Of a stretch of 64,000 bases of DNA, positions 22,088 to 57,866 are shown one piece after another. This stretch comes from Bacillota bacterium (GTDB lineage Bacteria > Bacillota > Dehalobacteriia > UBA4068 > UBA4997): positions 3,473-67,472 of the forward strand of contig JAETNY010000011.1 of the NCBI GenBank assembly GCA_021771915.1, in the 5' to 3' direction. Below the pieces are notes generated by a model that saw only the letters and a list, made by a program, of their open reading frames with translations, was not told where the DNA came from and ran no database searches. The translations under genes were made by a program, and so were the position numbers. Each line of letters begins with the position of its first letter. Within the stretch, counting starts at the first letter, position 1.

Positions 22088-22090
22088 AGA

Positions 22091-30951: not shown

Positions 30952-31094
30952 AATAAATTATTTCAACCCCCCAATCAAGTTTGTCATCGCTAAAATGAGC
31001 TTTTTAAGGCTCGTTTTATGCTTTTAGGATAAACCATACGCGCAACCCTAAAACCGCTCTCCCAAACCCTTGCTGCATAAGGCTTTTATTATCG

Positions 31095-33243: not shown

Positions 33244-33275
33244 AATATCAACCTCCTAATTTGTGCAGATAGACA

Positions 33276-33313
33276 AAGAACTGCCCTGCGAAATATCTCA
33301 CAGGGCAGTTCTT
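33276..33313 (-). terminator. Terminator-like hairpin after the surface-protein gene
   Basis: aagaactgccctg/cagggcagttctt 13-bp stem. Confidence 0.72.
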
Positions 33314-33324
33314 ATCATCTAAAA

Positions 33325-38565: not shown

Positions 38566-38635
38566 ATAAATAAATCACCTCTCTATTTTCTTTCTTCTAT
38601 AAATATAATTAGTTACATATCCAACAAGCGTTTAG

Positions 38636-39397: not shown

Positions 39398-39719
39398 CGT
39401 CGCTCAAGTTTTCTGTTGCGTAGTCCTCCGTGGCTACCGCATAGGCCGCTGCAACCTCGTTGTTTAATTCCGCCGCCGTATCCGCCGGATTTTCTTCCAC
39501 AGCAGGCGCAGCTTTTGGCTTGTCCTCGCCGTTAATCAGTTCGGCCAATTCCTCAAAACTCATACCAAGACCGCGCACCATTCCTACAATCTCCAGATTT
39601 TCCAGCGCCGTACACTGTTTTTCAATTTCCTGCTGCCGCTCCATAAGAGCGGCCATCTTCTTGTCGTTCTTGGCGTATTCCGCCTGCAATTTCTCAAGCT
39701 TTTTCAAATTTGCGTTCAT
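39378..39719 (-). CDS. DUF4315-like coiled-coil ICE protein
   Basis: [12 protein letters not shown]; typical position after the hydrolase. Confidence 0.78.
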
Positions 39720-39736
39720 ACATTCTCCTCTCTTTT

Positions 39737-41053: not shown

Positions 41054-41144
41054 CGGCCAACTGGCTGCAAACCTCCACCAGCCCTTCAGTTATTTCCGTC
41101 AGTTTTGCCGCCAAAAGCAGCAGGTATTTAAGCTGTTTTTCCAT
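40995..41144 (-). CDS. Small acidic hypothetical protein (49 aa, absent from ORF track)
   Basis: MEKQLKYLLLLAAKLTEITEGLVEVCSQLADELPEYTEDCEPPENNSFD; RBS ggagga; fills virB4-hydrolase gap. Confidence 0.55.
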   Translation of the reverse strand: MEKQLKYLLLLAAKLTEITEGLVEVCSQLADELPEYTEDCEPPENNSFD

Positions 41145-41168
41145 ATCTTTTTATCCTCCAAATTATAT

Positions 41169-43544
41169 TTATTTGACCACTTGTTCACCGGGGCGAGTGG
41201 TCATAATTTTATATAGACTGCTGTCCGTCGGAAAACGGTCAACGAAAGGCAAGATGACATTGCCGTAAAAAAGCAGCCCCTCGCCAGCCCCAGAGTGGGT
41301 AACATAAGATAGCTGATGCGGCGAAATATTCAACTGTTTAGCCAAAATCTCCCTGTCCCCTCTGGCTTGGTTGAGCATATATAGAAAGTCGCTGTTTTCC
41401 AGAATATTAGCAATCTCCGGGCTGGCTAAAAGGTCTTTGCTGTTCTGGGTGATACCCGTAGGAATACCGCCCCATTTGCGAAAGCGTTTCCAAATCTCCA
41501 CGCTCCAAGCGGCCAACTCACCTTTCAGCAGCAGGTGAAATTCGTCCACATAGTAGCGGGTGGATTTTCCTGCCGCCCTGTTTACCGTAACCCTGTTCCA
41601 AACCTGATCTTGAATAACCAGCATACCAAGCTGCTTTAGCTGCTTGCCCAACTCCTTAATGTCATAGCAGACAATACGCTTGTCAATATCCACATTAGTA
41701 CGGTGATTAAATACATTCAAACTGCCCGATACATACAACTCCAAAGCCGCCGCTATCCTTTTAGCCTCCGGCTCAGGCTGTTGCAAAAGTTCATTATACA
41801 AATCCTCTAAAACCGGCATTTTCTCCGGCACTGGCTCGGCTAGAAAATCCCGATAAATCAGCCGGACGCAGCGGTCGATAACCGTCTTTTCTACCGGCTG
41901 CAAGCCCTCTTTACCGCCGATAACAATATCGCAGAAAGACAAAATAAAATCCACTTTCAAAGAGAGTGGATTTTCATCATCACTGTAATTCAAATTTAAG
42001 TCCAGCGGATTGACATACTGCTTGCTTACCGGCGAAATCTGCACCACCTGACCGCCCAGCCGCTCAACTAGCGAAAAATACTCGGCCTCCGGGTCGCAGA
42101 TAAGAATATCGTCTGGGGTAGATAGAAACACATTGAGTATTTCTCTTTTGGCTGAGAAGCTTTTACCACTGCCCGGCGTACCCAGAATAAGGCCGTTGGG
42201 ATTTTTCAGCTGCTTGCGGTCTACCATAATCAGGTTATTACTTAAAGCGTTTAAGCCGTAATACAAAGCCTCGCCGCCATTCTGGAACAACTCCTGCGTG
42301 GTAAACGGCACAAAAATCGCTGTGCTGCTGCTAGTCAAGCCCCGCTCAATCTCAATCTGGTTGTAACCCAAGGGCAAGCTGCTCATAAAGCCCTGTTCCT
42401 GCTGCCAATCCAGCCGCACCAGCTTGCAGTTATGCTTTTGGGCAATGCTCGCCGCTTGAAACACATTATTTTCCAGCTGCCGCTTTGCCGCCGCCGTATT
42501 AACAATAATGAAAGTTACCAGAAACATACGCTCGTTGCGGCTTTGCAAATCCTCCAGCAGCTTTTTCGCTTCTGTGCCGTAAGCCGCCAAATCCGAGGGA
42601 ATTATGTCCATATCGTAGCCTGCGCGTACCGCCCGCTTTTGTTCCTCAATTTTCTGACGGTCGAGGTCAGTTATTTTATGCTTAACCTGCTTAATTGCCG
42701 CCGTCTGGTCGATAGGCTGAATATGCAGGCTCACAATCTGCGAACTATCCATATCCAAAAAGTCAGCCAGCATACGGTCGTTTAACTCCGGCGCTAAAAT
42801 CTGCACAAACGAGGCCGCACCAAAGCTTTCGCCAACTCGAAAACTGCGGCTGTTGCCAAACTCAAAAGAAGACGGCGCAATAAAGTCCTTGGTAGATAAG
42901 CCACTTGGCGCAAGCCAACGCCAGTCAAAGGGCATTTTCTGTGTGTCCAAATGCAAAATGTTATGCAGAAGTTCCAGCCATTCTTGACCGTCTAAGGGCT
43001 TGGCAGCAACCCCTAAGCGCTTAAAGTTATTCAAAATATCCAACTCCAGCCGCTCCAAGCGAGGTTTGGCCTCCCGCAGGCTGGCCGCCTCAATGCCAAA
43101 CGTGAGATATTTCGTTTTAGCCAGGCCGTTATTGCCTTTAGCCAACTGCCGCTGCAATATGCCGGAATATTCCTCACGAGTATCGTCAAAGCCGTCGCCT
43201 TGCAAGGGGATAGAAATACTCTGCACAGCGCCGCCGTCGCTCACCGCCAAATCCACAAAGGTCAGCTGCAAATGCACTGAGGAATCAAAGTAGTTCAGAA
43301 AATCGCACCAGCCCTCAAATATGGCCTCCTTATCCTCCTTTTGCGCCAGCTGATAATTTACGTCTTGAAACTGCATTGTTTTAGTGTAAGTATTGCCATT
43401 CACCCGGCAAACGCCCTCCGGCCAAATCCGCTCATAAGGAATAGACTGTTGAGCAGAAATCTTTTTGCCGTCCTCTCCTTTAGCCCTGCGAATAGCAGAT
43501 TCAATCTGCCGCCTATCTGCACTTGACAGTTTTTTGCTTGACAT
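41169..43544 (-). CDS. virB4: VirB4-like conjugation ATPase (start uncertain)
   Basis: GTPGSGKS, DPEAEY, YVDEFH, RFRKWGG. Confidence 0.93.
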   Translation of the reverse strand: MSSKKLSSADRRQIESAIRRAKGEDGKKISAQQSIPYERIWPEGVCRVNGNTYTKTMQFQDVNYQLAQKEDKEAIFEGWCDFLNYFDSSVHLQLTFVDLAVSDGGAVQSISIPLQGDGFDDTREEYSGILQRQLAKGNNGLAKTKYLTFGIEAASLREAKPRLERLELDILNNFKRLGVAAKPLDGQEWLELLHNILHLDTQKMPFDWRWLAPSGLSTKDFIAPSSFEFGNSRSFRVGESFGAASFVQILAPELNDRMLADFLDMDSSQIVSLHIQPIDQTAAIKQVKHKITDLDRQKIEEQKRAVRAGYDMDIIPSDLAAYGTEAKKLLEDLQSRNERMFLVTFIIVNTAAAKRQLENNVFQAASIAQKHNCKLVRLDWQQEQGFMSSLPLGYNQIEIERGLTSSSTAIFVPFTTQELFQNGGEALYYGLNALSNNLIMVDRKQLKNPNGLILGTPGSGKSFSAKREILNVFLSTPDDILICDPEAEYFSLVERLGGQVVQISPVSKQYVNPLDLNLNYSDDENPLSLKVDFILSFCDIVIGGKEGLQPVEKTVIDRCVRLIYRDFLAEPVPEKMPVLEDLYNELLQQPEPEAKRIAAALELYVSGSLNVFNHRTNVDIDKRIVCYDIKELGKQLKQLGMLVIQDQVWNRVTVNRAAGKSTRYYVDEFHLLLKGELAAWSVEIWKRFRKWGGIPTGITQNSKDLLASPEIANILENSDFLYMLNQARGDREILAKQLNISPHQLSYVTHSGAGEGLLFYGNVILPFVDRFPTDSSLYKIMTTRPGEQVVK

Positions 43545-44025
43545 TTGGTTTGGCTTTTTTGCGCCGCTTTTTACCGTCCTTGTCGCCAACTCCGCATTGT
43601 CTGGCCTGCCTGCCGTCCCAAATAGGCGGCAAAAGCAGCTCCTGATTTTTCCGGCTGTTTGCCACAATATGCGCCACCTCCCTTTCCAAAGTATTCTGCC
43701 TGCCCAGCAAAGCATAGAAATTCTCTATCTTATATGGCCGCTGTTTAGGGCGTTTGAAGATAACATTTAGAATGTTCGCCAATACTTTTTCCAGCGGCTG
43801 GCCGTTTTTCTCATAGATAGCCAGCAGAAAAAAGGGCAGCATCGTCATTACCATTGCCATAGCTGACAGGCTTGAGTTGCAGCCAATACCGGCTTTCAGC
43901 CCAAAATACAGCGGCAGGCCAACCGCCGCTCCACTGCCGAAACAAACCAACTGCCGCGTTGTCAGCCCAAACATCACCTTGCTCCGCACTCTGCCCAAAT
44001 CCGCAGGCACGCTTACATATGCCAA
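43513..44025 (-). CDS. PrgI-family protein
   Basis: VPADL...KVMFGLTTRQL, two TMs, KNGQPLEK. Confidence 0.9.
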   Translation of the reverse strand: MAYVSVPADLGRVRSKVMFGLTTRQLVCFGSGAAVGLPLYFGLKAGIGCNSSLSAMAMVMTMLPFFLLAIYEKNGQPLEKVLANILNVIFKRPKQRPYKIENFYALLGRQNTLEREVAHIVANSRKNQELLLPPIWDGRQARQCGVGDKDGKKRRKKAKPNVKQKTVKCR

Positions 44026-44044
44026 TCTATCACCAACCTTTCTT

Positions 44045-44938
44045 TTATTTTTTTAAGCTTGACTTGTAGTCGGCAAAGCTATCCACCACATTAAAAATCC
44101 GCCTGTTGTTGACCCAGCGTTGCAGCTGACGAGTAACAGGCGGAGCCTCCGGCTTATTATATATCATCACATAAGGAGCATAACCCAAGGCTTTCAGCGT
44201 TTCAATGCGGTACAAATCTTCATTGAATGTACTATTGTAATTGCAAAGCACATATACGGATAGCCGCTGCTTGGCCTTAATCCGGCTTAACTTCATAAAC
44301 CTCTCAAAATGCCCGGTCAAATCTTCTTTAGGATTATCCCAAGCAAAATGCAGCATTTTACTTTTAACCCTGTTAAGCAAAGAAATATTATCCGGCGTAG
44401 TCAGGCGAATATCCAAACCCTGTGTAAAATCCACCCAAGCGCCGCTCTCCGCCAACTGCTCCAACAGCTTCTCGTGTTCCGAACAGGCCAGCAAATTGGC
44501 GTCCAAGAGTTTTATTTCTTTCTGACCTCGCCAGAACTCCGCTAAATCTGCCACCCTGCGGCTTTGCCGTCCCTCCTTTTGGCTTACAATGCAAAATCCG
44601 CAGCCTCTTGGACAGCCTCTGGTTAGAAAACCATAGGCCACGCCCTCAAACTGCGGATACAAGCCGTAATCCGGGTAGATATGCTCAACCTCCTCAATAA
44701 GCCGGTTTTGCAGCCCATAGCCAGTGCCGCCGCAAATAACCTTGCCGGCATTGTTTACCGCTATGTTATCCCTGGAGTACATATCTGTAAAAACTCGGCT
44801 CTTATACACCACATCATAATGACCGTCCTCCTGCCACCAACTGACTTCATCACCTCTGGCCTTGTGCCAAGCAGATATTTTCATCAAACACAGATTAGGC
44901 CAGTTATGACCGTCTACATCACATAAGCCTACTCGCAA
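44045..44938 (-). CDS. Radical SAM-like protein
   Basis: TRGCPRGCGFC (CxxxCxxC), DFTQGLDIR. Confidence 0.82.
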   Translation of the reverse strand: MRVGLCDVDGHNWPNLCLMKISAWHKARGDEVSWWQEDGHYDVVYKSRVFTDMYSRDNIAVNNAGKVICGGTGYGLQNRLIEEVEHIYPDYGLYPQFEGVAYGFLTRGCPRGCGFCIVSQKEGRQSRRVADLAEFWRGQKEIKLLDANLLACSEHEKLLEQLAESGAWVDFTQGLDIRLTTPDNISLLNRVKSKMLHFAWDNPKEDLTGHFERFMKLSRIKAKQRLSVYVLCNYNSTFNEDLYRIETLKALGYAPYVMIYNKPEAPPVTRQLQRWVNNRRIFNVVDSFADYKSSLKK

Positions 44939-44986
44939 ATTCTTCTCTCAATCCTCCAATCTACTACATTTAATGATTTAGGGCAT

Positions 44987-45024
44987 AAAAAACCGTCATA
45001 AGGATTAATCCAGAATGACGGTTT
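44987..45024 (-). terminator. Intrinsic terminator after the toxin gene
   Basis: aaaccgtcat/atgacggttt stem with T-run on the minus strand. Confidence 0.72.
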
Positions 45025-45030
45025 GAAAAT

Positions 45031-45312
45031 CTATCTATTAAATAAATCACTGTGCGTTCCTGTACGAGATAAAGTCAACACCAAAACATCGTCGTCAATA
45101 CGATAAACCAATAGCCAATCGGGTTGAATATGGCATTCCCGATGCCCTACCCAATCGCCAGATAACGAATGATCTTTGTTTTTCTCAGGTAATATTTCGC
45201 CTCTTGACAATGCACGAATAATATTATCCAGCAGCTCAATATCCATATTACGCTTAAGCGCAAGTTTGTAGTCTTTCTTAAATTGAGTTGTCCAAACAAT
45301 ATCCCGTTTCAT
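45031..45312 (-). CDS. yafQ: YafQ-family (RelE fold) mRNase toxin
   Basis: FKKDYK, KDHSLSG, RECHIQPDWLLVY, RTGTHSDLF. Confidence 0.94.
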   Translation of the reverse strand: MKRDIVWTTQFKKDYKLALKRNMDIELLDNIIRALSRGEILPEKNKDHSLSGDWVGHRECHIQPDWLLVYRIDDDVLVLTLSRTGTHSDLFNR

Positions 45313-45584
45313 TTCTTCAACTCCCGAAGCGCGTCTTCAACGTCGGAATAGCGCTTAACATCTGGGTCGTGAGCAATCCGTTCTGCCTCGAGCATAGCGG
45401 CAAGCGTTTCTTTATTAGGCTTATCCAGCTTAACCTCAAAAGGAAAGCCGCCTACTCGCAGCGATTGACGCAGAAAAACATTGATTGCTGTAGTAAGATT
45501 CATACCCAATTCCCCATAAAGTGTTTCGCATTGCTTTTTTATATCGCTGTCCATTCGGACGCTGAAATTAGTAGTGTTTGCCAT
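45309..45584 (-). CDS. dinJ: RelB/DinJ-family antitoxin
   Basis: SVRMDSDIK...LGMNLTTAINVFL...PF...PNKET; 4-nt overlap with toxin. Confidence 0.92.
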   Translation of the reverse strand: MANTTNFSVRMDSDIKKQCETLYGELGMNLTTAINVFLRQSLRVGGFPFEVKLDKPNKETLAAMLEAERIAHDPDVKRYSDVEDALRELKK

Positions 45585-45620
45585 ATCATTGCCCCCCCTT
45601 TTGCATTTCATCACACCTCT

Positions 45621-45649
45621 ATTATATACTATTTGCAATGCAAAATCAA
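45621..45649 (-). promoter_or_regulatory. SigA promoter of the TA operon with palindromic operator
   Basis: TTGATT-17nt-TATAAT; tttgcattgcaaa palindrome over the spacer. Confidence 0.75.
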
Positions 45650-45657
45650 CTTCTTTT

Positions 45658-46527
45658 TTAATGCGCTCCAAATATCGCTTTACTCAAACTTCCCGTCTTA
45701 AACAGCGTGAAACATAAAAGCACCGTATATCCCATACAAGTCCAAATGGCCGTAGAGATGTTATCGTCCAAAACAATATGCTGCACCAACACCGCATAAA
45801 TGGCCACGCAGACCATTATGAGAAACGCTTGAAAACCCAGCGCAAACAATGAACGCAGATAATTCTGACCCATTCCGCCAAACTCCCGTCCCAGCATTGC
45901 CGCCATTGGCACAGAAGCCATTGAAGCCATTAAATATATTTCAATCATTCGGCCATAGACAATAATAAATATACAAATCACCAGCGCCCACATTGTCAAC
46001 CCCACAAACAGACTTTGAAACCACAACCCTATCAGCAAACCTAAATCCATTTCTGTAAGCCTTTCTTCCAAATCCGTCATTACTTCGGTTATGTCAATCG
46101 CCGTATTGCCGATTATTACTCCCGCCGCCTGATTAACCACCTGCTGGGTTAAATCAAAAACGCCCATTACAATATCCCAAGTATGCGATACGATGAGAAT
46201 TGCACAGGCTGTTTTGAATATCCACTTAAATATAACTGCACTTTCAATTTCGTGATAATTGTTTTTATCCAGCAATAGCTGCACCAACTCTAATGTCATC
46301 ACAAAAGCAAGTATAACCCCTGCCACCGGCAGTATGACTGTTTCAGAAAGACTATGCACCATATTGAATATGCCGCTGTTCCACGCCTGCGGAGTTGTAC
46401 CGACTTGTCCGGCAATATCGCTGACTTTATCGTTCATTGTATCGAACAGGCCGGAAAGATTACTCATTATACCGCTGACTAAAACCTCTTTCAGCCAGCC
46501 GGTTATCGACTCCCACAAGAAGTCCAT
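45658..46527 (-). CDS. VirB6-like polytopic T4SS protein
   Basis: Multiple TMs, YGRMIEIY, GQNYLRSLFALGFQ. Confidence 0.88.
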   Translation of the reverse strand: MDFLWESITGWLKEVLVSGIMSNLSGLFDTMNDKVSDIAGQVGTTPQAWNSGIFNMVHSLSETVILPVAGVILAFVMTLELVQLLLDKNNYHEIESAVIFKWIFKTACAILIVSHTWDIVMGVFDLTQQVVNQAAGVIIGNTAIDITEVMTDLEERLTEMDLGLLIGLWFQSLFVGLTMWALVICIFIIVYGRMIEIYLMASMASVPMAAMLGREFGGMGQNYLRSLFALGFQAFLIMVCVAIYAVLVQHIVLDDNISTAIWTCMGYTVLLCFTLFKTGSLSKAIFGAH

Positions 46528-46564
46528 ATCTTAAATCACTCCCCATTCACCCCAATCCCAAGCT

Positions 46565-46780
46565 TTAACCAAACAGCCCGGAGAGCAGGGGAACTAACGT
46601 CATACCAATAAGGGCAACGCCACCGCCTGCCATCAACTGCTTCATGCCCTGCGATTTGCTGCCCGGATTATCCTGCCCATAGCCCTCCAACAAATTAACC
46701 AAGCCCCAAACGCCTAAACCAGCGCCCAAGGCCACCACCAATGTCTGCAAAAGTTCAATACTCGCCTCGAAAAACTCCAT
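46565..46780 (-). CDS. Maff2-family membrane protein
   Basis: LLEGYGQDNPGSKSQGMKQLMAGGG. Confidence 0.92.
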   Translation of the reverse strand: MEFFEASIELLQTLVVALGAGLGVWGLVNLLEGYGQDNPGSKSQGMKQLMAGGGVALIGMTLVPLLSGLFG

Positions 46781-46835
46781 ATAATACCTCCCATTTTTTT
46801 AAGTTTTTGTTGTTTCTGTGTTTTCGGTCATATCA

Positions 46836-46963
46836 ACACTATACACATCGAGCCCTCCTTTCTGTTTTCTAATTGTCATAATTGCACGATGGTATGTGTT
46901 CGCACTACGAATCGGCCTGCGCCTATGGCTTGGCCTCCTCGATGCTCACACTATACACATCGA
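46836..46963. repeat. Direct repeat of the virD4 3' end
   Basis: acactatacacatcga at 46836-46851 and 46948-46963. Confidence 0.85.
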
Positions 46964-48707
46964 ACACCTCCTTTGTTTTAAGTTTTAATTGAGTTGAAAG
47001 AAAACGCCCTATGTTCAGAGCATTTTTCTTATCGCTATCCGCTAAAAATTTGTAATTCGGGTGCTGGGTTATATCGTATTTATCCGATAAAAACGGCCTA
47101 ACGCCCCTTAACTGCAAAATACATTTGCTGCCGTCCAAAACGGCCAGCTCGTCTTGGCTCATCAACTCCTTTCCCAATTTCTGATAATTCAAAGAATGGC
47201 TTGTTTCCTTGCCCCGGCTTTCGCCAGTGTTAAAGCTGTCTATCGTTTCCTTGCCCAGCGCCGCCGCCAACTCTTTGAGCGTTCCCGGCTCTTTGCCGCC
47301 AAGAAAAATGCTGCTGTCCATATTGCCAATAATGGTATCGGCATTATCCTTGTAGATTGCCTTTAACTGGCTTTGACTTTGCAGGATAACCACCGCCGAA
47401 ATTTCCCGACTGCGGATTGTTGCAATCAGCTTTTCAAAGTTCGGTATCTGGCCGATATTGGCAAACTCATCAATCAGGCAGCGCACATGGCAAGGCAGCC
47501 TCCCTCCGTATACATCGTCTGCCTTTTCACAAAGCAAATTAAACAGTTGGCTGTAAATCATTGAGATTAAAAAGTTAAATGTGCTGTCCGTATCTGACAT
47601 AATCAGGAAAAGCGCCGTTCTCTTATCCCCGATAGTATCCAAATCCAACTCGTCATAGGCGGTAATCTCTCGCAGTTCCGCAATATCAAATGGCGCTAAC
47701 CTTGCGCCGCAGCTCACAAGAATAGATTTAGCTGTTTTGCCAGCGGCCAATTTATATTTAGCATATTGACGCACAGCGAAGTGATCCGGCTGTTTTTTTG
47801 CCAATTCCTCAAACATTAAATCCACCTGATTTTGAAAACTCTCGTCCTCCTCTCTAACTTCCATTGTATTTATCATCTCAATCAGGGTTGGAAAATTCCG
47901 CTCCTCAAGCGGCGCTTCATAATACAGATAACCAATAAGGGCGCAATAGAGCAGCGTTTCCGCCTTCGTCCAGAATTCGTCGCCTCCTTTCTGCTCACCC
48001 TTGGTATTGGTTATTAGCACGTTTACCAGCTTCAAAATATCCTTTTCACTGTGAATGTAGGCAAGCGGGTTGTAATGCAGGCTTTTTTGGAAGTTTATGG
48101 TGTTAAACACCTTCAGCCGGTATCCCTTATGCAGCAGCATTTTGCCGCACTCAATAACCAAGCTGCCTTTCGGGTCGGTTACTACAAATGAGCAAGGATA
48201 TTTTCCTGAATCGCACTGCATTAAGTTTGGCTTAACCCAAAACCGCGTTTTGCCGCTGCCAGAGCCGCCCACAATAAGCACATTCTTATTCCTTGCCGTT
48301 TTCGGCTCTTTGGGGCGGCTGTTCATCGTGAGCCGCTCAGTTTGCGTTAAGATGATATTGTCCTCAAATTTCGGTGCAATGTAGGGCTTAATGTCTACCG
48401 TCGTTCCCCAACGAGCCGAGCCATATTCAACTCCTTTCCTAAATTTCTTAGAGTTCTGGCTATGAATTGCCACAGCCAGCCTTAAAAACAAGGCGCAGAC
48501 AAGGCCAACCAATAAATCTGCTAGGTAAAAGCTGGGCAAGAACGACTGAAAAGCCGCCCCAAACCCCTCGGCCAAGTGCAGCAGCTTAACGCTGGCGTTA
48601 TCCCCAGCAGCCAGCCGCCACGCCTGACCGATTTTGCCAGCATAAAGCCCAATGAACAGATAAGGCAGGTTAAGCAACAGCAGCTTTTTGATGTTTATAT
48701 CTCTCAT
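46923..48707 (-). CDS. virD4: VirD4/TraG coupling protein
   Basis: YGSARW, GGSGSGKT, TDPKG, LIDEFANIG. Confidence 0.95.
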   Translation of the reverse strand: MRDINIKKLLLLNLPYLFIGLYAGKIGQAWRLAAGDNASVKLLHLAEGFGAAFQSFLPSFYLADLLVGLVCALFLRLAVAIHSQNSKKFRKGVEYGSARWGTTVDIKPYIAPKFEDNIILTQTERLTMNSRPKEPKTARNKNVLIVGGSGSGKTRFWVKPNLMQCDSGKYPCSFVVTDPKGSLVIECGKMLLHKGYRLKVFNTINFQKSLHYNPLAYIHSEKDILKLVNVLITNTKGEQKGGDEFWTKAETLLYCALIGYLYYEAPLEERNFPTLIEMINTMEVREEDESFQNQVDLMFEELAKKQPDHFAVRQYAKYKLAAGKTAKSILVSCGARLAPFDIAELREITAYDELDLDTIGDKRTALFLIMSDTDSTFNFLISMIYSQLFNLLCEKADDVYGGRLPCHVRCLIDEFANIGQIPNFEKLIATIRSREISAVVILQSQSQLKAIYKDNADTIIGNMDSSIFLGGKEPGTLKELAAALGKETIDSFNTGESRGKETSHSLNYQKLGKELMSQDELAVLDGSKCILQLRGVRPFLSDKYDITQHPNYKFLADSDKKNALNIGRFLSTQLKLKTKEVFDVYSVSIEEAKP

Positions 48708-48713
48708 CGCCTA

Positions 48714-49208
48714 TCATCGCTCCCTTTCCTTGCGTTTTTCCTTATCCATAACCGGCTTTTTAACCAGCTCCTTAAAAGCGGCCAGCTTGGCCAGCACCGA
48801 GGGGCGCTCCCGCTGCTCCTTTTTGTTAATTTGCTTTTGCGTATATTCCTTAAAAGCCGCCGTCAACGCGTCTGCGTCCCTTGCCTTAAAGAAGATAAGA
48901 TATTTGGGCGGCTCAACGCCTTTCTCTCGCTTAACGGCGTAATCCACGCCATATTTTCGGGCAATCCGCTCAAACTCCCGGCTGGACTTATCGTTCAACT
49001 CAATATTGCTAACGCCCTGTCCCTGCTCAACCAACTGCTTAACCGTCTGTTTGCCCCGATGATTTACAGGACTGCCTCTGGCCTTATCCAGCTTGATTGA
49101 CCGGCGGTGAGCCAGATATTTGCCTATCGCCTCCTTGAGCGTCCTACCAGTGAATTTGCTGCTACTGACAATAAGGGTCAGCGTTCTGCTCTCAACTTCT
49201 TCCTGCAT
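48714..49208 (-). CDS. PcfB-family protein
   Basis: GKQTVKQL, ARKYGVDYAV, FFKARDADAL. Confidence 0.88.
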   Translation of the reverse strand: MQEEVESRTLTLIVSSSKFTGRTLKEAIGKYLAHRRSIKLDKARGSPVNHRGKQTVKQLVEQGQGVSNIELNDKSSREFERIARKYGVDYAVKREKGVEPPKYLIFFKARDADALTAAFKEYTQKQINKKEQRERPSVLAKLAAFKELVKKPVMDKEKRKERER

Positions 49209-49209
49209 A

Positions 49210-49968
49210 TTAGTTCCTCAAAAACAGGTTTACAAAGTATTCCTGCCCCAGGCCGGTTACCTTGGGAGTTTTCATTACTTTGCTTAAACCGCCGTTATGA
49301 ATAACCACCGTTTCCTTAACCTCCATAATGCCCATTTCCATTGATTTTTGGGTAGGCATATTATAGCTTTCACCTTTGCGCCGGCAAAGAAACCCATGTT
49401 CACGCAGCCATTCAAACAGCCGGTGCTGGCCGATGTTCACACCGTTTTGGCAAAGGATTTTTGCCAAATCGCCAATAAGGATACTATCTGGCGAGGTTAC
49501 AATAGCCTCGGCCAGCTGCACTTTTGGCGCATTGTCAACAGCCTGCCGTTCCAATTCCTGCCGCATATTTCTTTCTGCCTTGAGTTCCAAGGCCAGCTTG
49601 ATTATGGTATCCGGGTTAAGGATTGCTGCCTCCAGAGTCTCGTCCGTCAGATACATTCCGTGCTTGCGGATAGTGGGCAAAATCTCACAGACTACCCAAT
49701 CCGTAAATTTTTCCGCTGCCGGCAGTTTAGAACTAAAAATGAGCCGATATAAATCCGGCTCAGGGATAAAAAGCATTTCCTGTTCACCGCTGTTTGTAGG
49801 GATACGCCGTTTCAGCGTACCCCTAGAATGTCTTGCAATAGCTTCATTTGGCCTCGCATATCCCAGCGCCTTTGCTACATCACTGCCACAAAACAAAATT
49901 TCGCCGTTTTCAACCAGCGTTCTGACACGCCCAAATTCCGGGCTTTCAAACATCTGCATTTCCTGCAT
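49210..49968 (-). CDS. Bro-N/KilAC phage-type antirepressor
   Basis: FGRVRT, DVAKALGY, ILPTIRKHG, KVTGLGQEYF. Confidence 0.9.
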   Translation of the reverse strand: MQEMQMFESPEFGRVRTLVENGEILFCGSDVAKALGYARPNEAIARHSRGTLKRRIPTNSGEQEMLFIPEPDLYRLIFSSKLPAAEKFTDWVVCEILPTIRKHGMYLTDETLEAAILNPDTIIKLALELKAERNMRQELERQAVDNAPKVQLAEAIVTSPDSILIGDLAKILCQNGVNIGQHRLFEWLREHGFLCRRKGESYNMPTQKSMEMGIMEVKETVVIHNGGLSKVMKTPKVTGLGQEYFVNLFLRN

Positions 49969-49974
49969 AATAAT

Positions 49975-50880
49975 CTACCTCCCGTCTATCGCCAAATCGT
50001 GATTGACCTGCATTGTGTAGTGGTTATCCAGCGTGGAGGGCGCGTTAAAGAGAGCGGCCAGCAGATAAGCCTTGGTATTTTTGACATGTGTGGTGTTTTC
50101 TTCAATCCCAGCCAGCACTTTCTCGATGTGTGCCTGCCCAATTTTGCCGAAACGCTCCTGCACATAGGCCGCTGGGTATTCCATATCCCGGCCTAGCTTA
50201 ATAACCGGGCTTTTCGCCAAAGCAACCTCCAGCATAAGTTCCACCAGTTCGTCCAACTGCTGCCGGTTAGCCGCATTGCCAAGATAGGCATAACCAATTT
50301 GATTTTTAATACCCTCTCTGAGAGTTTTAATATCCGTCAGTCCGTCCGTCTTAGCAGCTTTGTCTTTTTCGTCCTGCTGTTCTGTACTTTCGACAGAATG
50401 ACGGAATGAATGAGTATTTCCTCCTTGGGTATTTACTCGATTAGTATTTTCTCTCTGGATAATTTCTTCTTGCGTATTTAATTCTGCGGCTGTTTTCGAA
50501 ACTGGCTCAACCATATCGGGAAAATCCATATTTGGCTTATTAAGATTAGAAACTTCCACATCTGACGGATTATCCTGCACAGCTTTATACGGCTGCTCAT
50601 AAATGGTGTACTCGGTATCGCTAATCCGTCCGTTAGCGCCCCGCAGCTGCCGCCGGATTATGTAGCCTGCCTTTTCCAACTCCCTAACCGCACTGCCGAT
50701 AGCGTCCACTCCCTCCTTACTGATAGCGGCCAGCCCCCGCAGAGTATAGTTCCATTCGTCCGGCAGGGACAAAATCATAGACAACAAGCCTTTGGCCTTA
50801 AGGCTCAACCCTCGGTCTTTCAGATGATGATTGCTCATCACTGTATAATCTCTAGTGCGTTCCACACGATAGATAGCCAT
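49975..50880 (-). CDS. Replication initiator-like protein (N-terminal wHTH, DUF6017-like C-terminus)
   Basis: YTVMSNHHL..LSLKAKGLL..ELEKAGYI; KNTKAYLLAALFNAP. Confidence 0.8.
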   Translation of the reverse strand: MAIYRVERTRDYTVMSNHHLKDRGLSLKAKGLLSMILSLPDEWNYTLRGLAAISKEGVDAIGSAVRELEKAGYIIRRQLRGANGRISDTEYTIYEQPYKAVQDNPSDVEVSNLNKPNMDFPDMVEPVSKTAAELNTQEEIIQRENTNRVNTQGGNTHSFRHSVESTEQQDEKDKAAKTDGLTDIKTLREGIKNQIGYAYLGNAANRQQLDELVELMLEVALAKSPVIKLGRDMEYPAAYVQERFGKIGQAHIEKVLAGIEENTTHVKNTKAYLLAALFNAPSTLDNHYTMQVNHDLAIDGR

Positions 50881-50902
50881 TGTTTTTCACTCTCCCAAAT
50901 AT

Positions 50903-51703
50903 TCAGTGGCATTTACGCCTTACATATTTTTCTCCTCGCTCCTCAGCAGCAAAACGCTCCTCCAGCTCCGCCACGCTCCAATTCTGCTTAAACTGGCCTA
51001 AAGGATTAGAGCCGAACTGTTCTCTGGCTCGTTTATCCATTGCCAGCAGCCTTGCCCAAAGCTGAGGGTGATGCAATCTTAATTGCCGCAACTCGCCAAT
51101 CCTCTGAAAAGGGCAACAAAAACAGGAGGCTCGATGATAAATCTCATACAAACCTCCAAAATCAAAACCACGGTCATAGCATATCTGCAACGCCTGCGCC
51201 TCGGTAACACCCCAATCGACCAGCGGATAATATTTGTTTTGCTCACCCTTGCAGCGCCAACTCTCGTCGGCGGCAATACCAATATATTGCCTAATTTCCC
51301 GGCCTGCCGCAAAGCGCTTTAATTCATTTTCCACAAGATGGGCTTTCAAATAACCAGTACACCAGCGAACTCGAATACCCGGCCAGCCGTTGCCACAAAG
51401 CGGCAAGCCCAAACTTTGCCGTTTCTCAATGCTTTTTGCTGCAACCTTGGGTTGCTCAAACATCAAATATTCAAAGCTTTTTGAACTATGCAGCGTTGTG
51501 ATGTGCAGCCCTCGCTCCCGATGCAGATATTCGTCCACCTTCTGCAAATGCTCATACATCTCAGGAAACTCCATTCCCGTATCCGCTGTCATAACATAGT
51601 CTACGGGCATACCCTTTTCAATCATCAGGATAAGCAGGGCTGTGCTGTCCTTGCCGCCTGATAGCGACACAACATTCAAATCGTTATTTTCTATATTATC
51701 CAA
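50903..51703 (-). CDS. PAPS reductase-family (PP-loop) protein
   Basis: SLSGGKDS, DTGMEFP, RWCT, SCFCCP. Confidence 0.88.
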   Translation of the reverse strand: MDNIENNDLNVVSLSGGKDSTALLILMIEKGMPVDYVMTADTGMEFPEMYEHLQKVDEYLHRERGLHITTLHSSKSFEYLMFEQPKVAAKSIEKRQSLGLPLCGNGWPGIRVRWCTGYLKAHLVENELKRFAAGREIRQYIGIAADESWRCKGEQNKYYPLVDWGVTEAQALQICYDRGFDFGGLYEIYHRASCFCCPFQRIGELRQLRLHHPQLWARLLAMDKRAREQFGSNPLGQFKQNWSVAELEERFAAEERGEKYVRRKCH

Positions 51704-52319
51704 CCTCCCTTTTTACAGTTTTTTCTCTAATATCCAGAGCTGCCAATCCATACCGATAGATAAGCAAGGCATTGACGATAAGACAAAACTCGCTCAACCC
51801 CACCGCCGATATATCCTCCAGCCTTTGCAGCAACCTGCCGATATTATCTACCGCAATACTTCTGGCCGCTGCAAACAGTGTGTAATCTCCGTCTGACATC
51901 TCGGCGATATTCGCCCAAGTCAGGTCAATACTTTGCCGCTCTATGCAGTTTATGGTCAGGCGGTTTAATTCCCGGCTGGCCGCAAACAGATACATCACCG
52001 CATAATATTTGGCTGTATCCTTTCTCCTTTTGCTGTACCTAAAACGAGCCATAAGGTAATCCCAGCGCTGTTTATGCTGCTTGTCCAACCACAAAGAGCC
52101 GAAAAACAGCTGCACTGCCATATGCAGTCTAGCCGCCAACCGTTTGTTTTCTGGAAAACTCTCCAGCAAAGCCTCGGCGTAACCAACAACGCCGGCCTCA
52201 ATTCTTTCAGCCAGCCAAGGACAGCCGCCGCGCATTGTGCAACCCCTCGGTTTTCGATATTCAGTACACAGACGGCAATCTACCATTGTCGGCGTGTACT
52301 TAAATGTGTTTAGAAACAA
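51696..52319 (-). CDS. Hypothetical ICE protein with N-terminal Cys cluster
   Basis: CRLC...C....CPW; RBS ggagg; coupled to next gene. Confidence 0.72.
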   Translation of the reverse strand: MFLNTFKYTPTMVDCRLCTEYRKPRGCTMRGGCPWLAERIEAGVVGYAEALLESFPENKRLAARLHMAVQLFFGSLWLDKQHKQRWDYLMARFRYSKRRKDTAKYYAVMYLFAASRELNRLTINCIERQSIDLTWANIAEMSDGDYTLFAAARSIAVDNIGRLLQRLEDISAVGLSEFCLIVNALLIYRYGLAALDIREKTVKREVG

Positions 52320-52399: not shown

Positions 52400-53311
52400 T
52401 TACCGCTCCTGCGCCCGCTGGCGTTTTTTCTGCCAAGCCTCCAATAGCCGGATTATGGTGTTTTCCATTTGCAGCGGCGTATAGGAACGAGGGAAATATT
52501 TACGCAGCTTTTCCGTCGAAAAACTAACGCTTTCTTTATCCGGCGTAACTTCTTCTTTGCGGTTTTGCTCCGGCTTTTTTTCTTCCTGCATAATTTCCAG
52601 TATTTTATCGCCGCTCAACTCTCCAGCTTGGCTCATTTTTTTCATTCGCTGTGCCTGTGAGAGCGAGGGCGTGGCCTGCTCGCTGTCGATAGCTTCAAGC
52701 AGCTGCTTTTGTTCCTCCGGCTGCAAGTAGGATAACTCCACCGCCGGTGTAAAGCCGATTTTTTTATCATCAACCAACTGCTGCAACTCCGGCTCCAATT
52801 CTGTCAGACGGATATACCGTTGAATTTGTCTGCCGCTTTCGCCGGTAGTTTCACCAACAATATCTGAACTTTCCAACTTCCCGACAACTTGTCGGGAAGT
52901 TAAATCCGTCCGCGCACCTTGCCGCTTAATGGCCTCCAGTTTCATTTTATACGCCTTGGCCTTTTCGCTGGGCAGGATATTTTCACGCTGCAAATTGCTG
53001 TCCACCATCATAATAACAGCGGTATCAGCGTCCATATCCTTAACAATAACCGGCATTTTATCCAGTCCGGCCAATTCGCAGGCGCGTTTCCGCCGATGGC
53101 CGGAAATTATCTCATAGCCGCCGCCCTCTCGTGGTCTAGCAATGGCCGGAGTTAAAACGCCATACTCCTTAATGCTAGCCGCCGTTTCCTGCATACTCTC
53201 ATCATCACGCACAGTAAAGGGCTGCTCAGGAAAAGGATAGAGTTCTGCAAGTGCGATGTTTACCACCTCCGCAACATTGTTTGTCTTTTTCTTCCTCGTT
53301 GTTTCTGCCAT
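52400..53311 (-). CDS. parB: ParB/Spo0J-family protein
   Basis: YEIISGHRR, VDSNLQRE, QIQRYIRL; ATG 53311 after RBS aaggag. Confidence 0.92.
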   Translation of the reverse strand: MAETTRKKKTNNVAEVVNIALAELYPFPEQPFTVRDDESMQETAASIKEYGVLTPAIARPREGGGYEIISGHRRKRACELAGLDKMPVIVKDMDADTAVIMMVDSNLQRENILPSEKAKAYKMKLEAIKRQGARTDLTSRQVVGKLESSDIVGETTGESGRQIQRYIRLTELEPELQQLVDDKKIGFTPAVELSYLQPEEQKQLLEAIDSEQATPSLSQAQRMKKMSQAGELSGDKILEIMQEEKKPEQNRKEEVTPDKESVSFSTEKLRKYFPRSYTPLQMENTIIRLLEAWQKKRQRAQER

Positions 53312-53411
53312 ATATATCACTCCTTTATGCTTTGCAGGATACAACAAGAGGGAATGTGTTATCTGTTTTTACATTCCCTCTAAAACAATATTTGAATGGT
53401 AAAATCACCTA

Positions 53412-55769
53412 TTATGCTGCTAAACATTCTTCACAGCCGAGAGCCACCTCACCGCAAAGCCGCATAAATACAGGCTTTTTAACTCTTTGATTTATTTTAT
53501 CTTCTTTCCGCAAATTGAAAATGTTGTTCTTGGTATAGCTCATCATTTCCTCTGCAACGTCAGTATCACGGATAGAAGATTCAGCGTCCTGAATGTTCTC
53601 GCGCATTACAGACAGGTTGTTGCTGGTATGGTCCAGACGGTTGCTCAAAGCGCCCAATGTACCACGAACAGAGGATACACTGTTGATAGCGTCTTTGATT
53701 ACGTTAATCGCAGCCTTTGCGCCCTCGGCAGTGCCAATATTAATACCGTCAATGCCCAAAGAAGCAGTGTGCATATCCTTAACGGAAACAGCCAGCTGGT
53801 TGAAATCATCAGATGTATCGCCAATCTGTAATGTCAAGGCACGACCCTCATAGCTATTGCTGGAAAGCTCAACCTTAGCGCCAATACGCTGTTCCTCAAC
53901 ATCAGTACCACTAATATCCTTGGATGTCAGGGTCATCTTGTTCCCATCGATTGTAACATTATACTTGGTAGCAGAACCACCAAAGGCCAAGTTTTTATTA
54001 ATAGCATTCTTCAATTCTATCAGAACATCATTAGTATTATATTCCGGAACTGTGCCGCCATTAGCCAAACCGAGTTTGGAAAGGTTAACAACAATATTTT
54101 GCTTCCCACCGGTTGCATTATCACCGTCAGTAAATTCAAAGGTTACACCATCAATAGTGATAGTATCGCCCTCTTTAATTTTAGTAACGTCCAGTTCAAA
54201 TGATACGCTGGCGGCTGCTTCTTTACTTGTACCAAAGAACTGCTTCATAACGCCGGCCTCTGTGCGCATATCGCAAACTGTACCCGTAGTACCGCCACCA
54301 ATATAGGCTGGATGATTTGCCGCAGAATTTGTATCACCATCATATGTGGAAAGAGATTGGAAAGTCAAAGTACCTTTACCGCCACTTACGCCGCCGTTAC
54401 CAACAGACCAGGTATTATTTTTATTGGTTTCATTAGTAGCGTTTTGATTTACAACGGAACCCATTTCGCCAACAATTTTAACCATAGCCGCAGCTTGTTT
54501 ATCTGCATCTAATAAATCAGCTTCGGTCTTGAAAATGTCTGTTAAATCAATAGTCTTCTTGCCACTGGTGCCATCATTAGCTGCCGTATTCAAACTGTCC
54601 AGTTTGAAATCATATTTCATATCGCCAACGTTCAGCGTATCGCCGTCTTTCAGCTTACTGAAATCAAGGTCAACGCTAACCTGCGCCTGATGTGTAGCGC
54701 CAATACCAATACCCGTCTTCGTATTTTGAACTTTCCAGTTCAAAGTACCGGTATCATCAGTGTTCTTAGCTTTCATTTCCACATCAAAATCCGGGTGAAT
54801 TGTGGTTCCTGCATCCTTACCCATCCAGTCAACCTGAGTAAAGGTTACAGTATTTCCAGCAGCAGACATTGCATAATAATGACCATCAATTTTTACATAA
54901 TTACTAGCAGGACTACCAGAGCCAGCCGCTAATCCGGCTTCCCAGTCAGCAGCCGTGCCTGCATCTGTTGTCATATCGGCTTTATTATCGGACTGATGCT
55001 TAATTGCATTAGCAGTTGTCTGCTTCATACCTGACTTAGCCAACTGCGCAGCAATATCACTTGCCGTCATAGCCTTGCCGGCAGAAGCAGCTTTAACCTC
55101 AAGCGTGGCGTCGCCGATTTTTACTTCCAAAGTTGCAGTAGTAGCCGCAGATTTTGGCTGAACAGCGGTTTTATCATCAAAAGTAATTTTGAACTGAGCA
55201 TTTTGCTGTTTAGTTGCAGCTTCCGGGCGATTGGTTATATAAGTAGCTTCAAAAGCATCGCTCGGGCGGTCTTCAGCCATATAATCAGTTGTGATAACAT
55301 TCTGGATTGCACTGCCCGCACTGATGTTAGCGGTACTTTCAGCGTCCAGAGAGCCGTCCAACAGCTTAATGCCGTTGAAGTTGGCGCTGTCAGCGATACG
55401 GTTAATTTCATCGCGCAGCTGGTCAACTTCAGCCTGCAAATTCTTGCGGTCAACCTCGTTGTCGAAAGTGCCGTTGGCAGATTCAGTTGCCAGATAAACC
55501 ATACGGTTCATCATGTCCTGAATTTCCTGCATAGCGCCCTCGGCAGTGTTTACCAGAGAGATGCCGTCCTTAACGTTCTTCTGGGCAGCTTCCAAACCGG
55601 TAATCTGAGCGCGCATTTTTTCGGAGATAGCCAGACCGGCAGCGTCATCGCCAGCGCGGTTAATCTTGTAACCAGATGACAATTTCTCCAGGTTTTTGCT
55701 CAAAGCAGAAGTGTTCTTGTTGTAGTTACGATAGGCGTTCATCGCCATAATGTTGTGTTGAATACGCAT
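53412..55769 (-). CDS. fliC: Flagellin with large variable domain; native C-terminus replaced by 35 ICE-encoded residues
   Basis: MRIQHN, LSSGYKINRAGDDAAGLAISE; ESSIRDTDVAEEMMSYTKNNI then unrelated sequence. Confidence 0.95.
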   Translation of the reverse strand: MRIQHNIMAMNAYRNYNKNTSALSKNLEKLSSGYKINRAGDDAAGLAISEKMRAQITGLEAAQKNVKDGISLVNTAEGAMQEIQDMMNRMVYLATESANGTFDNEVDRKNLQAEVDQLRDEINRIADSANFNGIKLLDGSLDAESTANISAGSAIQNVITTDYMAEDRPSDAFEATYITNRPEAATKQQNAQFKITFDDKTAVQPKSAATTATLEVKIGDATLEVKAASAGKAMTASDIAAQLAKSGMKQTTANAIKHQSDNKADMTTDAGTAADWEAGLAAGSGSPASNYVKIDGHYYAMSAAGNTVTFTQVDWMGKDAGTTIHPDFDVEMKAKNTDDTGTLNWKVQNTKTGIGIGATHQAQVSVDLDFSKLKDGDTLNVGDMKYDFKLDSLNTAANDGTSGKKTIDLTDIFKTEADLLDADKQAAAMVKIVGEMGSVVNQNATNETNKNNTWSVGNGGVSGGKGTLTFQSLSTYDGDTNSAANHPAYIGGGTTGTVCDMRTEAGVMKQFFGTSKEAAASVSFELDVTKIKEGDTITIDGVTFEFTDGDNATGGKQNIVVNLSKLGLANGGTVPEYNTNDVLIELKNAINKNLAFGGSATKYNVTIDGNKMTLTSKDISGTDVEEQRIGAKVELSSNSYEGRALTLQIGDTSDDFNQLAVSVKDMHTASLGIDGINIGTAEGAKAAINVIKDAINSVSSVRGTLGALSNRLDHTSNNLSVMRENIQDAESSIRDTDVAEEMMSYTKNNIFNLRKEDKINQRVKKPVFMRLCGEVALGCEECLAA

Positions 55770-56059: not shown

Positions 56060-56086
56060 ATATCGGCAACTTCTTAAAAAAAGTAA
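56060..56086 (-). promoter_or_regulatory. Sigma-28 (SigD/FliA) promoter
   Basis: TTAC-N15-GCCGATAT on the minus strand. Confidence 0.78.
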
Positions 56087-56258: not shown

Positions 56259-57866
56259 ATGCCGACAAAGTTCGTGTTTGTAACCGGCGGCGTGGTTTCC
56301 GGCCTTGGCAAAGGAATAACCGCGGCTTCGCTGGGGCGCCTGTTAAAAGCCAGAGGCGTCAAAGTCACCATGCAAAAGCTGGACCCTTACCTGAATATTG
56401 ACCCCGGCACCATGAGCCCATACCAGCATGGTGAAGTTTTTGTCACCGATGACGGAGCCGAAACCGATTTGGATTTAGGCCATTATGAACGCTTTATTGA
56501 TGAAAGCCTGAATAAATACTCCAACGTGACCTCTGGACGCGTTTTTGACAGCGTCTTAAAGGAGGAACGCAGCGGCAGCTATGAGGGCGGCACGGTGCAG
56601 ATGATTCCGCACATCACCAACAAAATAAAGGAAAATATCCGCCTGAATGTGGAAACCGCCAATGCTGATGTCGCGATAATTGAAGTCGGCGGTACCGTTG
56701 GTGATATTGAGTCCCTGCCCTTTGTTGAGGCTATCCGTCAGTTCGGAAGCGACGTTGGTCGGGAAAACTGCGTATATGTACATGTGGCGCTGGTGCCATA
56801 TCTGGCTAAATCCTGCGAGATAAAAACCAAACCTACCCAGCACAGTATTCGCGAGTTGTTAAGTCAGGGAATACAGGCCGATATCATCGTCTGTCGCACA
56901 GAGGTTGAACTTCCCTACTCCGCCAAACGCAAAATTTCCCAACTTTGCAATGTGCCGGTAGAAATGGTCATCGAAAACCGCGATTTGGACAGCCTATATG
57001 CCATTCCGCTGGCGCTGGAACAGGAAAATTTGTGCCGTATTGTAGCCGAAAAGCTACGTTTGAATTGCCAGCCAGAACCGGATTTGGCCGATTGGCAGCA
57101 CATGGTTGAAACAAGCCGCAACCTGCAACACACGGCACGCATTGCACTGGTTGGCAAATATGTCGCCCTGCACGACGCCTACTTAAGCGTAGTAGAAGCG
57201 CTGAAACACGGCGGTTTTGCCAACAATGCCGATATTGACATTAAATGGGTGCAATCTGAAGATATCACCCCAGAAACTGTGGAACAGCTTTTGGGCGATG
57301 TTGACGGCATTTTAGTGCCAGGCGGTTTTGGCGAGCGCGGCGTGGAGGGCAAAATTCTGGCCGCCAAATATGCGCGTGAAACCGGCAAACCTTATTTTGG
57401 TATCTGTCTTGGCATGCAGATTGCCATGATTGAATTTGCGCGTCATGTTTTGGGCTGGCCAAATGCCAACTCCACCGAGTTTGATGAAAATACTCCCTAC
57501 CCAGTTATTGATTTTCTGCCCGGCCAACGTGAGGAACAAAATCTGGGCGGAACATTGCGTCTGGGTCTATACCCCTGTGCTTTACAGCCAGGCAGTAAAG
57601 CGCAGGCAATTTATGGTCAGGAGCAAATTAATGAACGCCACCGTCATCGTTATGAAGTAAATAACGCTTATCTGGACGATTATCAGACACATGGTCTGGT
57701 GCTGTGTGGACAGGCTCCGGATAAAAGTGTGGTGGAAATGCTGGAACTGCCCCAGGATATACACCCCTGGTACATCGGTTGCCAATTCCACCCGGAATTT
57801 CGCAGCCGACCCAACAAACCGCATCCCCTCTTTGCTTCATTCATTGCAGCCAGCCTGCATAAATAA
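56259..57866 (+). CDS. pyrG: CTP synthase
   Basis: [34 protein letters not shown]. Confidence 0.99.

Follow-up and report, generated by a model that had tools for sequence, protein, structure and literature searches.

The flagellin gene and its displaced tail

We analysed a 64,000-nucleotide stretch (the window) of a Bacillota genome (GCA_021771915.1), which corresponds to positions 3473-67472 of contig C18 in an assembly of 2.30 Mb and 47 contigs, labelled G000. This rodent-gut bacterium carries two flagellin genes, one of which is split at its conserved end by a 54-kb integrative and conjugative element (ICE). Coordinates without a contig name refer to the window. At the split, a fusion open reading frame (ORF) of 785 residues lies at 53412..55769 on the minus strand and matches the Pfam families Flagellin_N (E 5.7e-43) and Flagellin_C (E 3.2e-16). 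Its flagellin head (53520..55769, minus strand, 751 codons) comprises the N-terminal D0/D1 regions, a large variable middle and the C-terminal D1 region, and ends in ...MSYTKNNI. The remaining 35 codons and the stop (53412..53519, minus strand) are derived from the ICE and include the right arm of its attachment site, attP (..CAATTTGCGGAAAG..). Thus, past ...EEMMSYTKNNI, where the head ends as ...DTDVAEEMMSYTKNNI, the frame continues for 35 residues as FNLRKEDKINQRVKKPVFMRLCGEVALGCEECLAA to a stop at 53412.

The earlier note on this DNA had described a flagellin that follows the family consensus to MSYTKNNI and then turns into 35 foreign residues, and the ORF, the Pfam matches and the alignments all place this departure at 53519/53520. 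The Flagellin_C match covers only positions 2-64 of the 86 in the profile and ends at residue 751. When aligned with the solved filament flagellin 6t17_A (276 residues), the fusion ORF was similar up to ...TKNNI (about chain residue 250), with no identities beyond. We fetched 23 homologues, a subset of the 120 best matches; 20 of the 23 carry the canonical C-terminus ...NNIL.Q..QAMLAQAN..PQ.VLQL(L/M)(Q/G), and the other three the ICE-derived tail. The fusion ORF lacks the complete C-terminal D0 helix (...LxQAxQAMLAQANQxPQxVLxLL) and is, as encoded, a truncated fusion. The note's estimate that about 25 residues normally follow was right in that the tail is replaced, but the count is 24. Relatives free of the ICE do not share the odd C-terminus, as is reflected by the 20 canonical homologues and by an uninterrupted site in a sister species.

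The 24 codons that are absent here, LVQSAQAMLAQANQVPQGVLQLLQ followed by a stop, lie about 54.3 kb away, outside the window and just past the tandem recombinase genes of the ICE. There, C18:2670..2587 (minus strand) encodes NNILVQSAQAMLAQANQVPQGVLQLLQ and a stop, starting about 65 nt beyond the stop codon of the outer recombinase, R1. The encoded protein is identical to the C-terminus of the intact paralogue on contig C29, which cannot be chance. The search for the lost codons beyond the far ICE end, the main test of the insertion, was therefore positive: the insertion lies inside a coding gene and the distal fragment is preserved. At the DNA level this tail differs by 8 nt from that on a metagenome contig (L142) and by 11 nt from the C29 tail, while all three translations are identical, indicating that the tail is undamaged and that normal excision of the ICE would restore the gene. 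Downstream of the tail lie a gene of the YjfB_motility family and a 675-residue ORF.

The ends of the element were defined by an empty locus in a sister species (L161, G005:C48), in which an unbroken head (matching C18:59230-56993) runs into the tail and downstream sequence (C18:2658-2244). Because L161 is colinear across the site, the ICE is placed at C18:2659-56992, a span of about 54.3 kb. The element thus has defined ends and an empty counterpart in a relative, and it carries together a relaxase, a coupling protein, a VirB4-type ATPase, mating-pore genes and an integrase, as expected of an ICE. On the metagenome contig L142, the left end of the ICE is identical over 310/310 nt, while the flank matches at 330/421 nt (78%); the empty form of that locus was found at G005:C31 (L154), 96% identical over 174 nt. 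An identical ICE end beside a flank of 78% identity indicates that this ICE has recently moved into another host, where it occupies the corresponding codon.

We further asked whether the junction is authentic. Among 24 listed sequencing runs, 20 contain the stretch or part of it and 15 at least half of its words; the runs go back to 10 mouse and rat gut studies, and two are marked as possible sources. Contigs, and contigs only, of four runs were aligned to the stretch, one run (X15) being an RNA library (metatranscriptome). One X12 contig (record 13) bridges the junction over 53369-53557 with 0 differences, and one X13 contig (record 18) bridges it over 52871-53761 with 28 differences and 4 gaps, representing a related pair. 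Both runs belong to studies other than those of the possible source runs, so that the junction is supported by contigs of two independent gut metagenomes. X11 contigs abut at 53517-53531 with no bridging, which is uninformative because conserved flagellin words branch the assembly graph. A chimera of an ICE contig and a flagellin contig is hardly conceivable: several related ICEs and repeated flagellin ends in this genome can confuse assemblers, but the two junctions are reciprocal with a shared core, the junction is bridged in two other studies, other assemblies have yielded the same fusion protein, and the empty site exists in the sister species. We regard an assembly artefact as excluded.

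Recombinases and the attachment site

Two large serine recombinase genes lie in tandem at the left end of the ICE. The gene for R2 (820..2484, minus strand; 554 residues) carries the domains Resolvase, Recombinase, Zn_ribbon_recom and DUF4368, and its product is 41% identical to R1. The N-terminal 278 codons of R1 lie at 3..836 (minus strand), and the gene runs on to C18:2737, outside the window, for 523 residues in all. R1 matches Resolvase (E 9.3e-23), Recombinase (E 2.5e-25), Zn_ribbon_recom (E 1.3e-12) and DUF4368, and its homologues in the PDB include TnpX, SPbeta SprA/YokA, the TP901-1 integrase and the PhiC31 integrase. Both proteins thus combine the catalytic, recombinase and zinc-ribbon domains of large serine recombinases.

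An 11-nt core, AACAACATTTT, is common to both junctions. Its copy at the flagellin head (attR) lies at 53518..53528 on the minus strand, the single match in the window, and its second copy (attL) lies at C18:2660-2670, where the left end of the ICE meets the tail. The attP deduced from the two ends is symmetric about the first two core bases, AA, with 19/25 positions in the subtype found here (ICE1) and 16/25 in a second subtype (ICE2), and other registers gave at most 11. The crossover dinucleotide is deduced to be AA at 53527-53528. The first difference from L142 falls 9 nt into the core. Taken together, the junctions are reciprocal hybrids with an 11-nt shared core and a dyad-symmetric attP, as expected of serine integrases, which act on sites some 40-50 bp long and imperfectly symmetric about a 2-bp crossover and duplicate no target sequence outside the core.

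The same codon has been hit repeatedly. With the last 40 residues of the fusion ORF as the query, a collection of 5.8 billion proteins returned four proteins, and all 4/4 candidates carry the ICE tail. One of them, P0001, is the allele of this genome (>99% identity; 2 member sequences, found on 3 contigs). P0002 and P0003 have the identical ICE1 tail, and P0121 has one of ICE2 type that is 78% identical, all fused after ...TKNNI, while the heads of the four fused alleles are 36-70% identical to one another. We then surveyed the insertion sites of homologous recombinases. Relatives at least 73% identical to R1 adjoin flagellin tails on C18 and C3 of this genome (the latter 75% identical) and on G008:C49 (73%). 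A flagellin tail was present at 1 of 68 genome loci (L025, recombinase 73% identical) and at 1 of 56 metagenome loci (L142, whose recombinase is 100% identical to R1 over the last 79 residues present). At the other 67/68 genome and 55/56 metagenome loci, with recombinases at most 51% identical to R1, no flagellin tail was found; the L144 recombinase (51%), for instance, ends in a non-flagellin flank. Flagellin tails therefore go with the R1 clade only. Neither the attR nor the attL junction pattern had a match in viral contigs (0 each).

Because the tails adjoin only R1-clade recombinases, four alleles are fused at one codon and empty sites exist, several independent lines support the conclusion that the conserved flagellin 3' coding sequence serves as the host attachment site (attB) of the R1 clade. 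This agrees with the earlier suggestion that the ICE uses a conserved, often multicopy flagellin motif: the same codon is occupied in at least four alleles by two ICE subtypes, and flagellin is multicopy both here and in G008.

Consequences for the host and rival explanations

The second flagellin of this genome, at C29:176710-174463 (749 residues), is intact, with a complete C-terminus and an unoccupied, near-identical attB in which few positions differ; the two heads are 70% identical. Genes for the export gate FlhA and the chaperone FliS are present, and matches to Flagellin_N were found only on C18, on C29 and, weakly and below the cut-off, on C9. The terminal D0 helices are required for flagellin polymerisation, and the C-terminal region binds FliS. 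Since the fusion protein lacks this end, we infer that it cannot build filaments, and the fusion subunit should neither polymerise nor be chaperoned normally. With an intact second flagellin, a loss of motility is unlikely, and the gene content suggests that the cell most likely remains flagellated via the paralogue.

In our view a complete ICE is very probably integrated site-specifically in one of two flagellin genes, targeting a conserved and redundant site and silencing the gene as a side effect. An element of about 54.3 kb, with a Firmicutes-type conjugation module, a lanthipeptide cargo and, at one end, a tandem pair of large serine recombinases, would integrate by serine recombination between its near-palindromic attP and an attB of about 50 bp. 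That attB would be the conserved stretch that encodes ...EEMM.YTKN|NILVQSAQ..., where the C-terminal D0 helix starts. Insertion would swap the last 24 flagellin residues for 35 encoded by the ICE, and the tail would stay intact beside the recombinase genes, from where ordinary excision would, by the mechanism itself, rebuild the gene exactly. A target that is highly conserved across hosts and usually redundant may offer a widely available landing site of low cost, and the silencing of one flagellin would be a by-product rather than a regulated switch.

Several points weigh against this explanation. Excision, a circular attP and a restored attB were not observed; the data are contigs only, with junctions 54 kb apart, so that their joint state could not be scored. 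Excision by large serine recombinases needs a recombination directionality factor, and none was identified, the small ORFs beside the recombinases (2627-2800 and 3232-3717, for example) not having been analysed for one. In 72 genomes of the class, the attR pattern occurred only in this genome, in 2 places, and so the case for independent events rests on the metagenome proteins P0002, P0003 and P0121. The intact form of this exact allele was absent among the protein-database matches.

The upstream and junction regions bear on the possibility that the site was chosen for its promoter. A perfect sigma-28/SigD-type -10 box, GCCGATAT, lies at 56060..56067 (minus strand), 292 nt before the start codon of the flagellin gene; its -35 element is poor. 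The octamer occurs 9 times in the window versus 2.2 expected, the full pattern TAAA-N14-17-CCGATA had no match upstream of the flagellin gene, and the DNA in front of the paralogue shows no conservation of this region. The claim that a sigma-28 promoter points into the parB end of the ICE therefore holds for the direction, with weak support for the promoter itself. All sizeable ORFs to the left of 53519 lie on the flagellin strand, beginning with a ParB-like gene (52400..53312, minus strand; ParB_N and HTH_ParB; ATG at 53312), which is the first ICE gene after the flagellin promoter. Between the stop of the fusion and parB lies a hairpin with an 11-bp stem (53347..53381, minus strand) and the tail UGUUGUAU, the stem of which is kept in ICE2; it may be a weak terminator, although the z-score of the region (the whole 121 nt) was only -1.78 and the terminator scan did not call the hairpin. 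The scan found no canonical terminator between the stop and parB, and a terminator-like hairpin follows parB at 52347-52378. The 170 nt from core to parB are 84% identical between ICE1 and ICE2, with long identical runs in this non-coding stretch (53330-53517, minus strand, in ICE1; C16:5600-5795 in ICE2), while 10 of the 35 extension residues differ, with no clear constraint at the protein level. Conservation of this DNA without such constraint suggests regulatory DNA or RNA of the ICE.

On this basis, it has been considered that the element selects the site so that a strong flagellin promoter reads into its parB end and couples it to the motility regulon. The common strand of all ICE genes from parB onward, the lack of a canonical terminator before parB in the scan and the 84% conservation without protein-level constraint speak for such promoter capture, but the conserved 11-bp-stem hairpin before parB and the terminator-like site after it would limit read-through, and the sigma-28 assignment is weak; we consider it unlikely. 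Read-through from the flagellin promoter into the ICE is itself possible on the gene layout, and the RNA-library contigs of X15, none of which covers 53026-53509, give no evidence either way. Two further candidates in this region were rejected as unsupported. A functional C-terminal peptide encoded by the ICE does not fit the 10 of 35 differing residues, given that the DNA is 84% conserved and the conservation runs past the stop. A 40-residue ORF spanning attP (MFNNIF...) has an ATG that is part of the attP inverted repeat, with no Shine-Dalgarno sequence before it. No Rfam family was found in 53200-56300, the best E-values being 0.14 and 0.27, below the gathering thresholds.

Relics of related insertions proved informative about what becomes of a split gene. 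At C3:56742-57100 (L164), an ICE2-subtype end lies beside a relic tail, MFNNILVQSAQAMLAQ/GVLQLLQ and a stop, with six codons deleted, followed by a frameshifted yjfB-like gene and then by another mobile element. Of the recombinases encoded at C3:53535-56742, one is 75% and the other 41% identical to R1; in DNA, the C3 element is 91.5% identical to that of G008. A Flagellin_N profile search found no head matching the C3 tail in the assembly. Likewise, no head was found for the ICE-adjoining tail of G008, a genome 96% complete with two intact flagellins only and no attR match. At C16:5704-7278 (L163), the right end of an ICE2-type element joins the 3' portion of a large serine recombinase gene that belongs to an unrelated element, at ...KLMAFTSNNI|FSLRRKNE..., where the DNA resembles the left half of the flagellin attB; this ICE thus sits inside another mobile element. 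The orphan and decayed tails suggest that some insertions become permanent, and the C3, G008 and C16 cases together indicate a selfish element with a preferred site, not a maintained host switch.

The earlier note had raised a possible reversible switch of motility and immune visibility. As a host-beneficial system, timed or selected excision and re-integration would turn the flagellin on and off, or choose between two antigenically different ones, and would thereby adjust motility and the response of TLR5 or NAIP-NLRC4 to the bacterium in the gut, like skin in sigK, SPbeta in spsM or the Listeria comK prophage. The gene is indeed cleanly split with a fully intact tail, the two paralogues, about 70% identical, provide two attB sites, and the direction of integration is fixed, which in every case places the ICE after the flagellin promoter. 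One metatranscriptome contig (X15 record 25, 1927 nt) matches 53518-55344 with 0 differences and continues past the junction with 100 letters that do not fit the ICE. This continuation is a hint only, since those letters may be a diverged ICE end or another flagellin. Two reports also link the C-terminal D0 region to TLR5 signalling (PMC5578693; 10.1101/2022.04.12.488020). However, neither excision nor both states in one population were seen, and motility need not change in a cell that has FlhA, FliS and an intact second flagellin with a free site. The C3 relic tail, with its six-codon deletion and frameshifted neighbour, and the G008 tail without a head are signs of decay, and an ICE2-type end in an unrelated look-alike gene is what a selfish element would produce. 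The motility part of the switch is thus not borne out, the relics argue that some insertions are not kept as switches at all, and we hold a regulated switch to be quite improbable.

We give equally little credit to a fixed, immobile insertion that has made this flagellin copy a pseudogene of the lineage. It would explain why the allele appears in the protein database only in interrupted form (P0001, 2 member sequences, 3 contigs), and related relics exist; but the conjugation and recombinase ORFs are all intact, the tail is undamaged, and the 310/310 nt identity of an ICE end in a host with a 78% flank implies recent transfer. A more elaborate proposal is that the ICE acts as a mobile flagellin selector, which lands in the same codons of whichever paralogue is free and leaves precisely. 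Its position would decide which flagellin is displayed and whether a D0-less, non-polymerising fragment is made from a strong flagellin promoter, with a heritable yet reversible change in recognition by TLR5, NAIP or antibodies as a gain for both host and element, and read-through would feed back on ICE expression. We regard this as speculative and very doubtful. Insertion of a selfish ICE into a conserved, redundant target, with silencing as its side effect, remains the reading we prefer.

Known clostridial elements of this kind include Tn4451/Tn4453 (with TnpX) and Tn5397 (with TndX), and streptococcal Tn1806-type ICEs have tandem serine recombinases. Common to these and the present element are large serine recombinases, encoded in tandem, at an end of the conjugative or mobilisable DNA, and site-specific integration into a short core that often lies within a protein-coding gene. 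What differs is the target, here the conserved flagellin 3' coding sequence. The match of R1 to the TnpX catalytic domain (E 7e-23) indicates family membership, not a close relationship. The mechanism of integration is the standard insertion of a serine-integrase ICE into a coding gene, of the type treated in the literature on ICEs with large serine recombinases (PMC4701971). A literature search, mostly of open-access texts, returned no ICE or serine-recombinase element in a flagellin gene, the closest concepts being Hin-type inversion (PMC3798978) and the repression of fliC by phage TldR (10.1101/2025.07.22.666180); prior mention is possible, and the result points to a previously unreported target preference.

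Gene-splitting elements whose excision rebuilds the gene are known in skin (SpoIVCA, sigK), SPbeta (SprA, spsM) and the Listeria comK prophage. What they have in common with the present case is a large-serine-recombinase element in a coding gene and an intact 3' fragment at the far end. However, they excise at a defined developmental or infection stage, when the rebuilt gene is needed, whereas here an intact paralogue makes rebuilding dispensable and decayed relics speak against a requirement; moreover, the element here is an ICE with a full set of conjugation genes, not a prophage or a defective remnant. In Hin/Gin-type flagellar phase variation of Salmonella, a serine recombinase likewise determines which flagellin is made, but Hin inverts a promoter segment between inverted repeats, while here a 54-kb insertion lies in the coding sequence and there is no invertible segment. 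Phage-encoded TldR is reported to repress host fliC while a phage flagellin is supplied (10.1101/2025.07.22.666180). There too a mobile element changes the flagellin displayed by the host; it does so by RNA-guided transcriptional repression and a replacement flagellin, whereas the ICE splits the gene physically and carries no flagellin.

Flagellins of Clostridia-like gut commensals are dominant antigens and innate immune ligands. Published work also links commensal flagellins to Crohn's disease serology. By landing in the D0-coding end, an ICE would let horizontal transfer edit the flagellins that gut bacteria make, potentially reversibly. The insertion also explains flagellins with an odd C-terminus in metagenome catalogues (P0001-P0003 and P0121); mistaken for genuine variants, they would distort flagellome profiles. 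More generally, the case illustrates how aiming at a conserved but redundant gene can widen the range of hosts open to a mobile element. The integrase, whose defined attB is highly conserved and present in many motile Firmicutes, could help to engineer gut bacteria of the uncultured type.

Gene content of the element and its surroundings

The conjugation and maintenance module occupies 16355..52319 (minus strand), and its ORFs, assigned by a Pfam match each, are long and uninterrupted. It includes the coupling protein at 46923-48707 (T4SS-DNA_transf/TraG-D_C), the VirB4-like ATPase at 41169-43715 (TraG P-loop ATPase), a topoisomerase at 31450-33243 and the relaxase at 20324-21736, accompanied by NikA/MobC, all on the minus strand and identified through Pfam. 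The same module also holds PrgI, a TrbL/VirB6-like protein (TrbL_2), an NlpC/P60 hydrolase, a CD1107-like protein, a YafQ/RelB pair and a methylase/SNF2 helicase protein of 2556 residues, again by Pfam. Also borne by the ICE, at 33325-38565 (minus strand), is a protein of 1746 residues with SLH domains, the gene of which contains internal repeats 426 nt and 852 nt apart with 65-67% identity.

The lanthipeptide cargo, a class-I-type cluster by Pfam, lies with MacB/HlyD-type transporters at 4708..15938 (minus strand). On the same strand, Pfam matches identified LanB at 7835-11014, LanC at 6499-7848 and an ABC exporter at 4708-6483. A 60-residue ORF at 15756-15938, with an FDLD leader and a core rich in Cys, Ser and Thr, is a candidate lanthipeptide precursor.

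Long parts of the ICE share 65-85% DNA identity with sequences on the G000 contigs C3, C13, C21, C15, C16, C47, C8, C41 and C11. Many of these ICE-related elements lie at contig ends, and related conjugative elements make up a sizeable share of the 2.3-Mb genome.

The chromosomal flank on the head side begins with pyrG (CTP synthase by Pfam; 56259..57866, plus strand), which lies upstream of the flagellin head and points away from it. On L142 (positions 300-3239), from the other host of the same ICE, a yjfB-like gene comes after the flagellin tail, then an ORF of several hundred residues rich in Cys, and then pyrG on the same strand, so that the position of the flagellin locus relative to pyrG differs between the two species. 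A second and small mobile element is found at 59675-64000, just after guaA (57895-59436). Its genes code for an HTH regulator, a tyrosine integrase (60611-61684), NikA-like and AAA_25/DnaB-like proteins and a Mob_Pre relaxase, the last of which continues beyond the edge of the window, and by its gene content it looks like an integrative mobilisable element at the 3' end of guaA.

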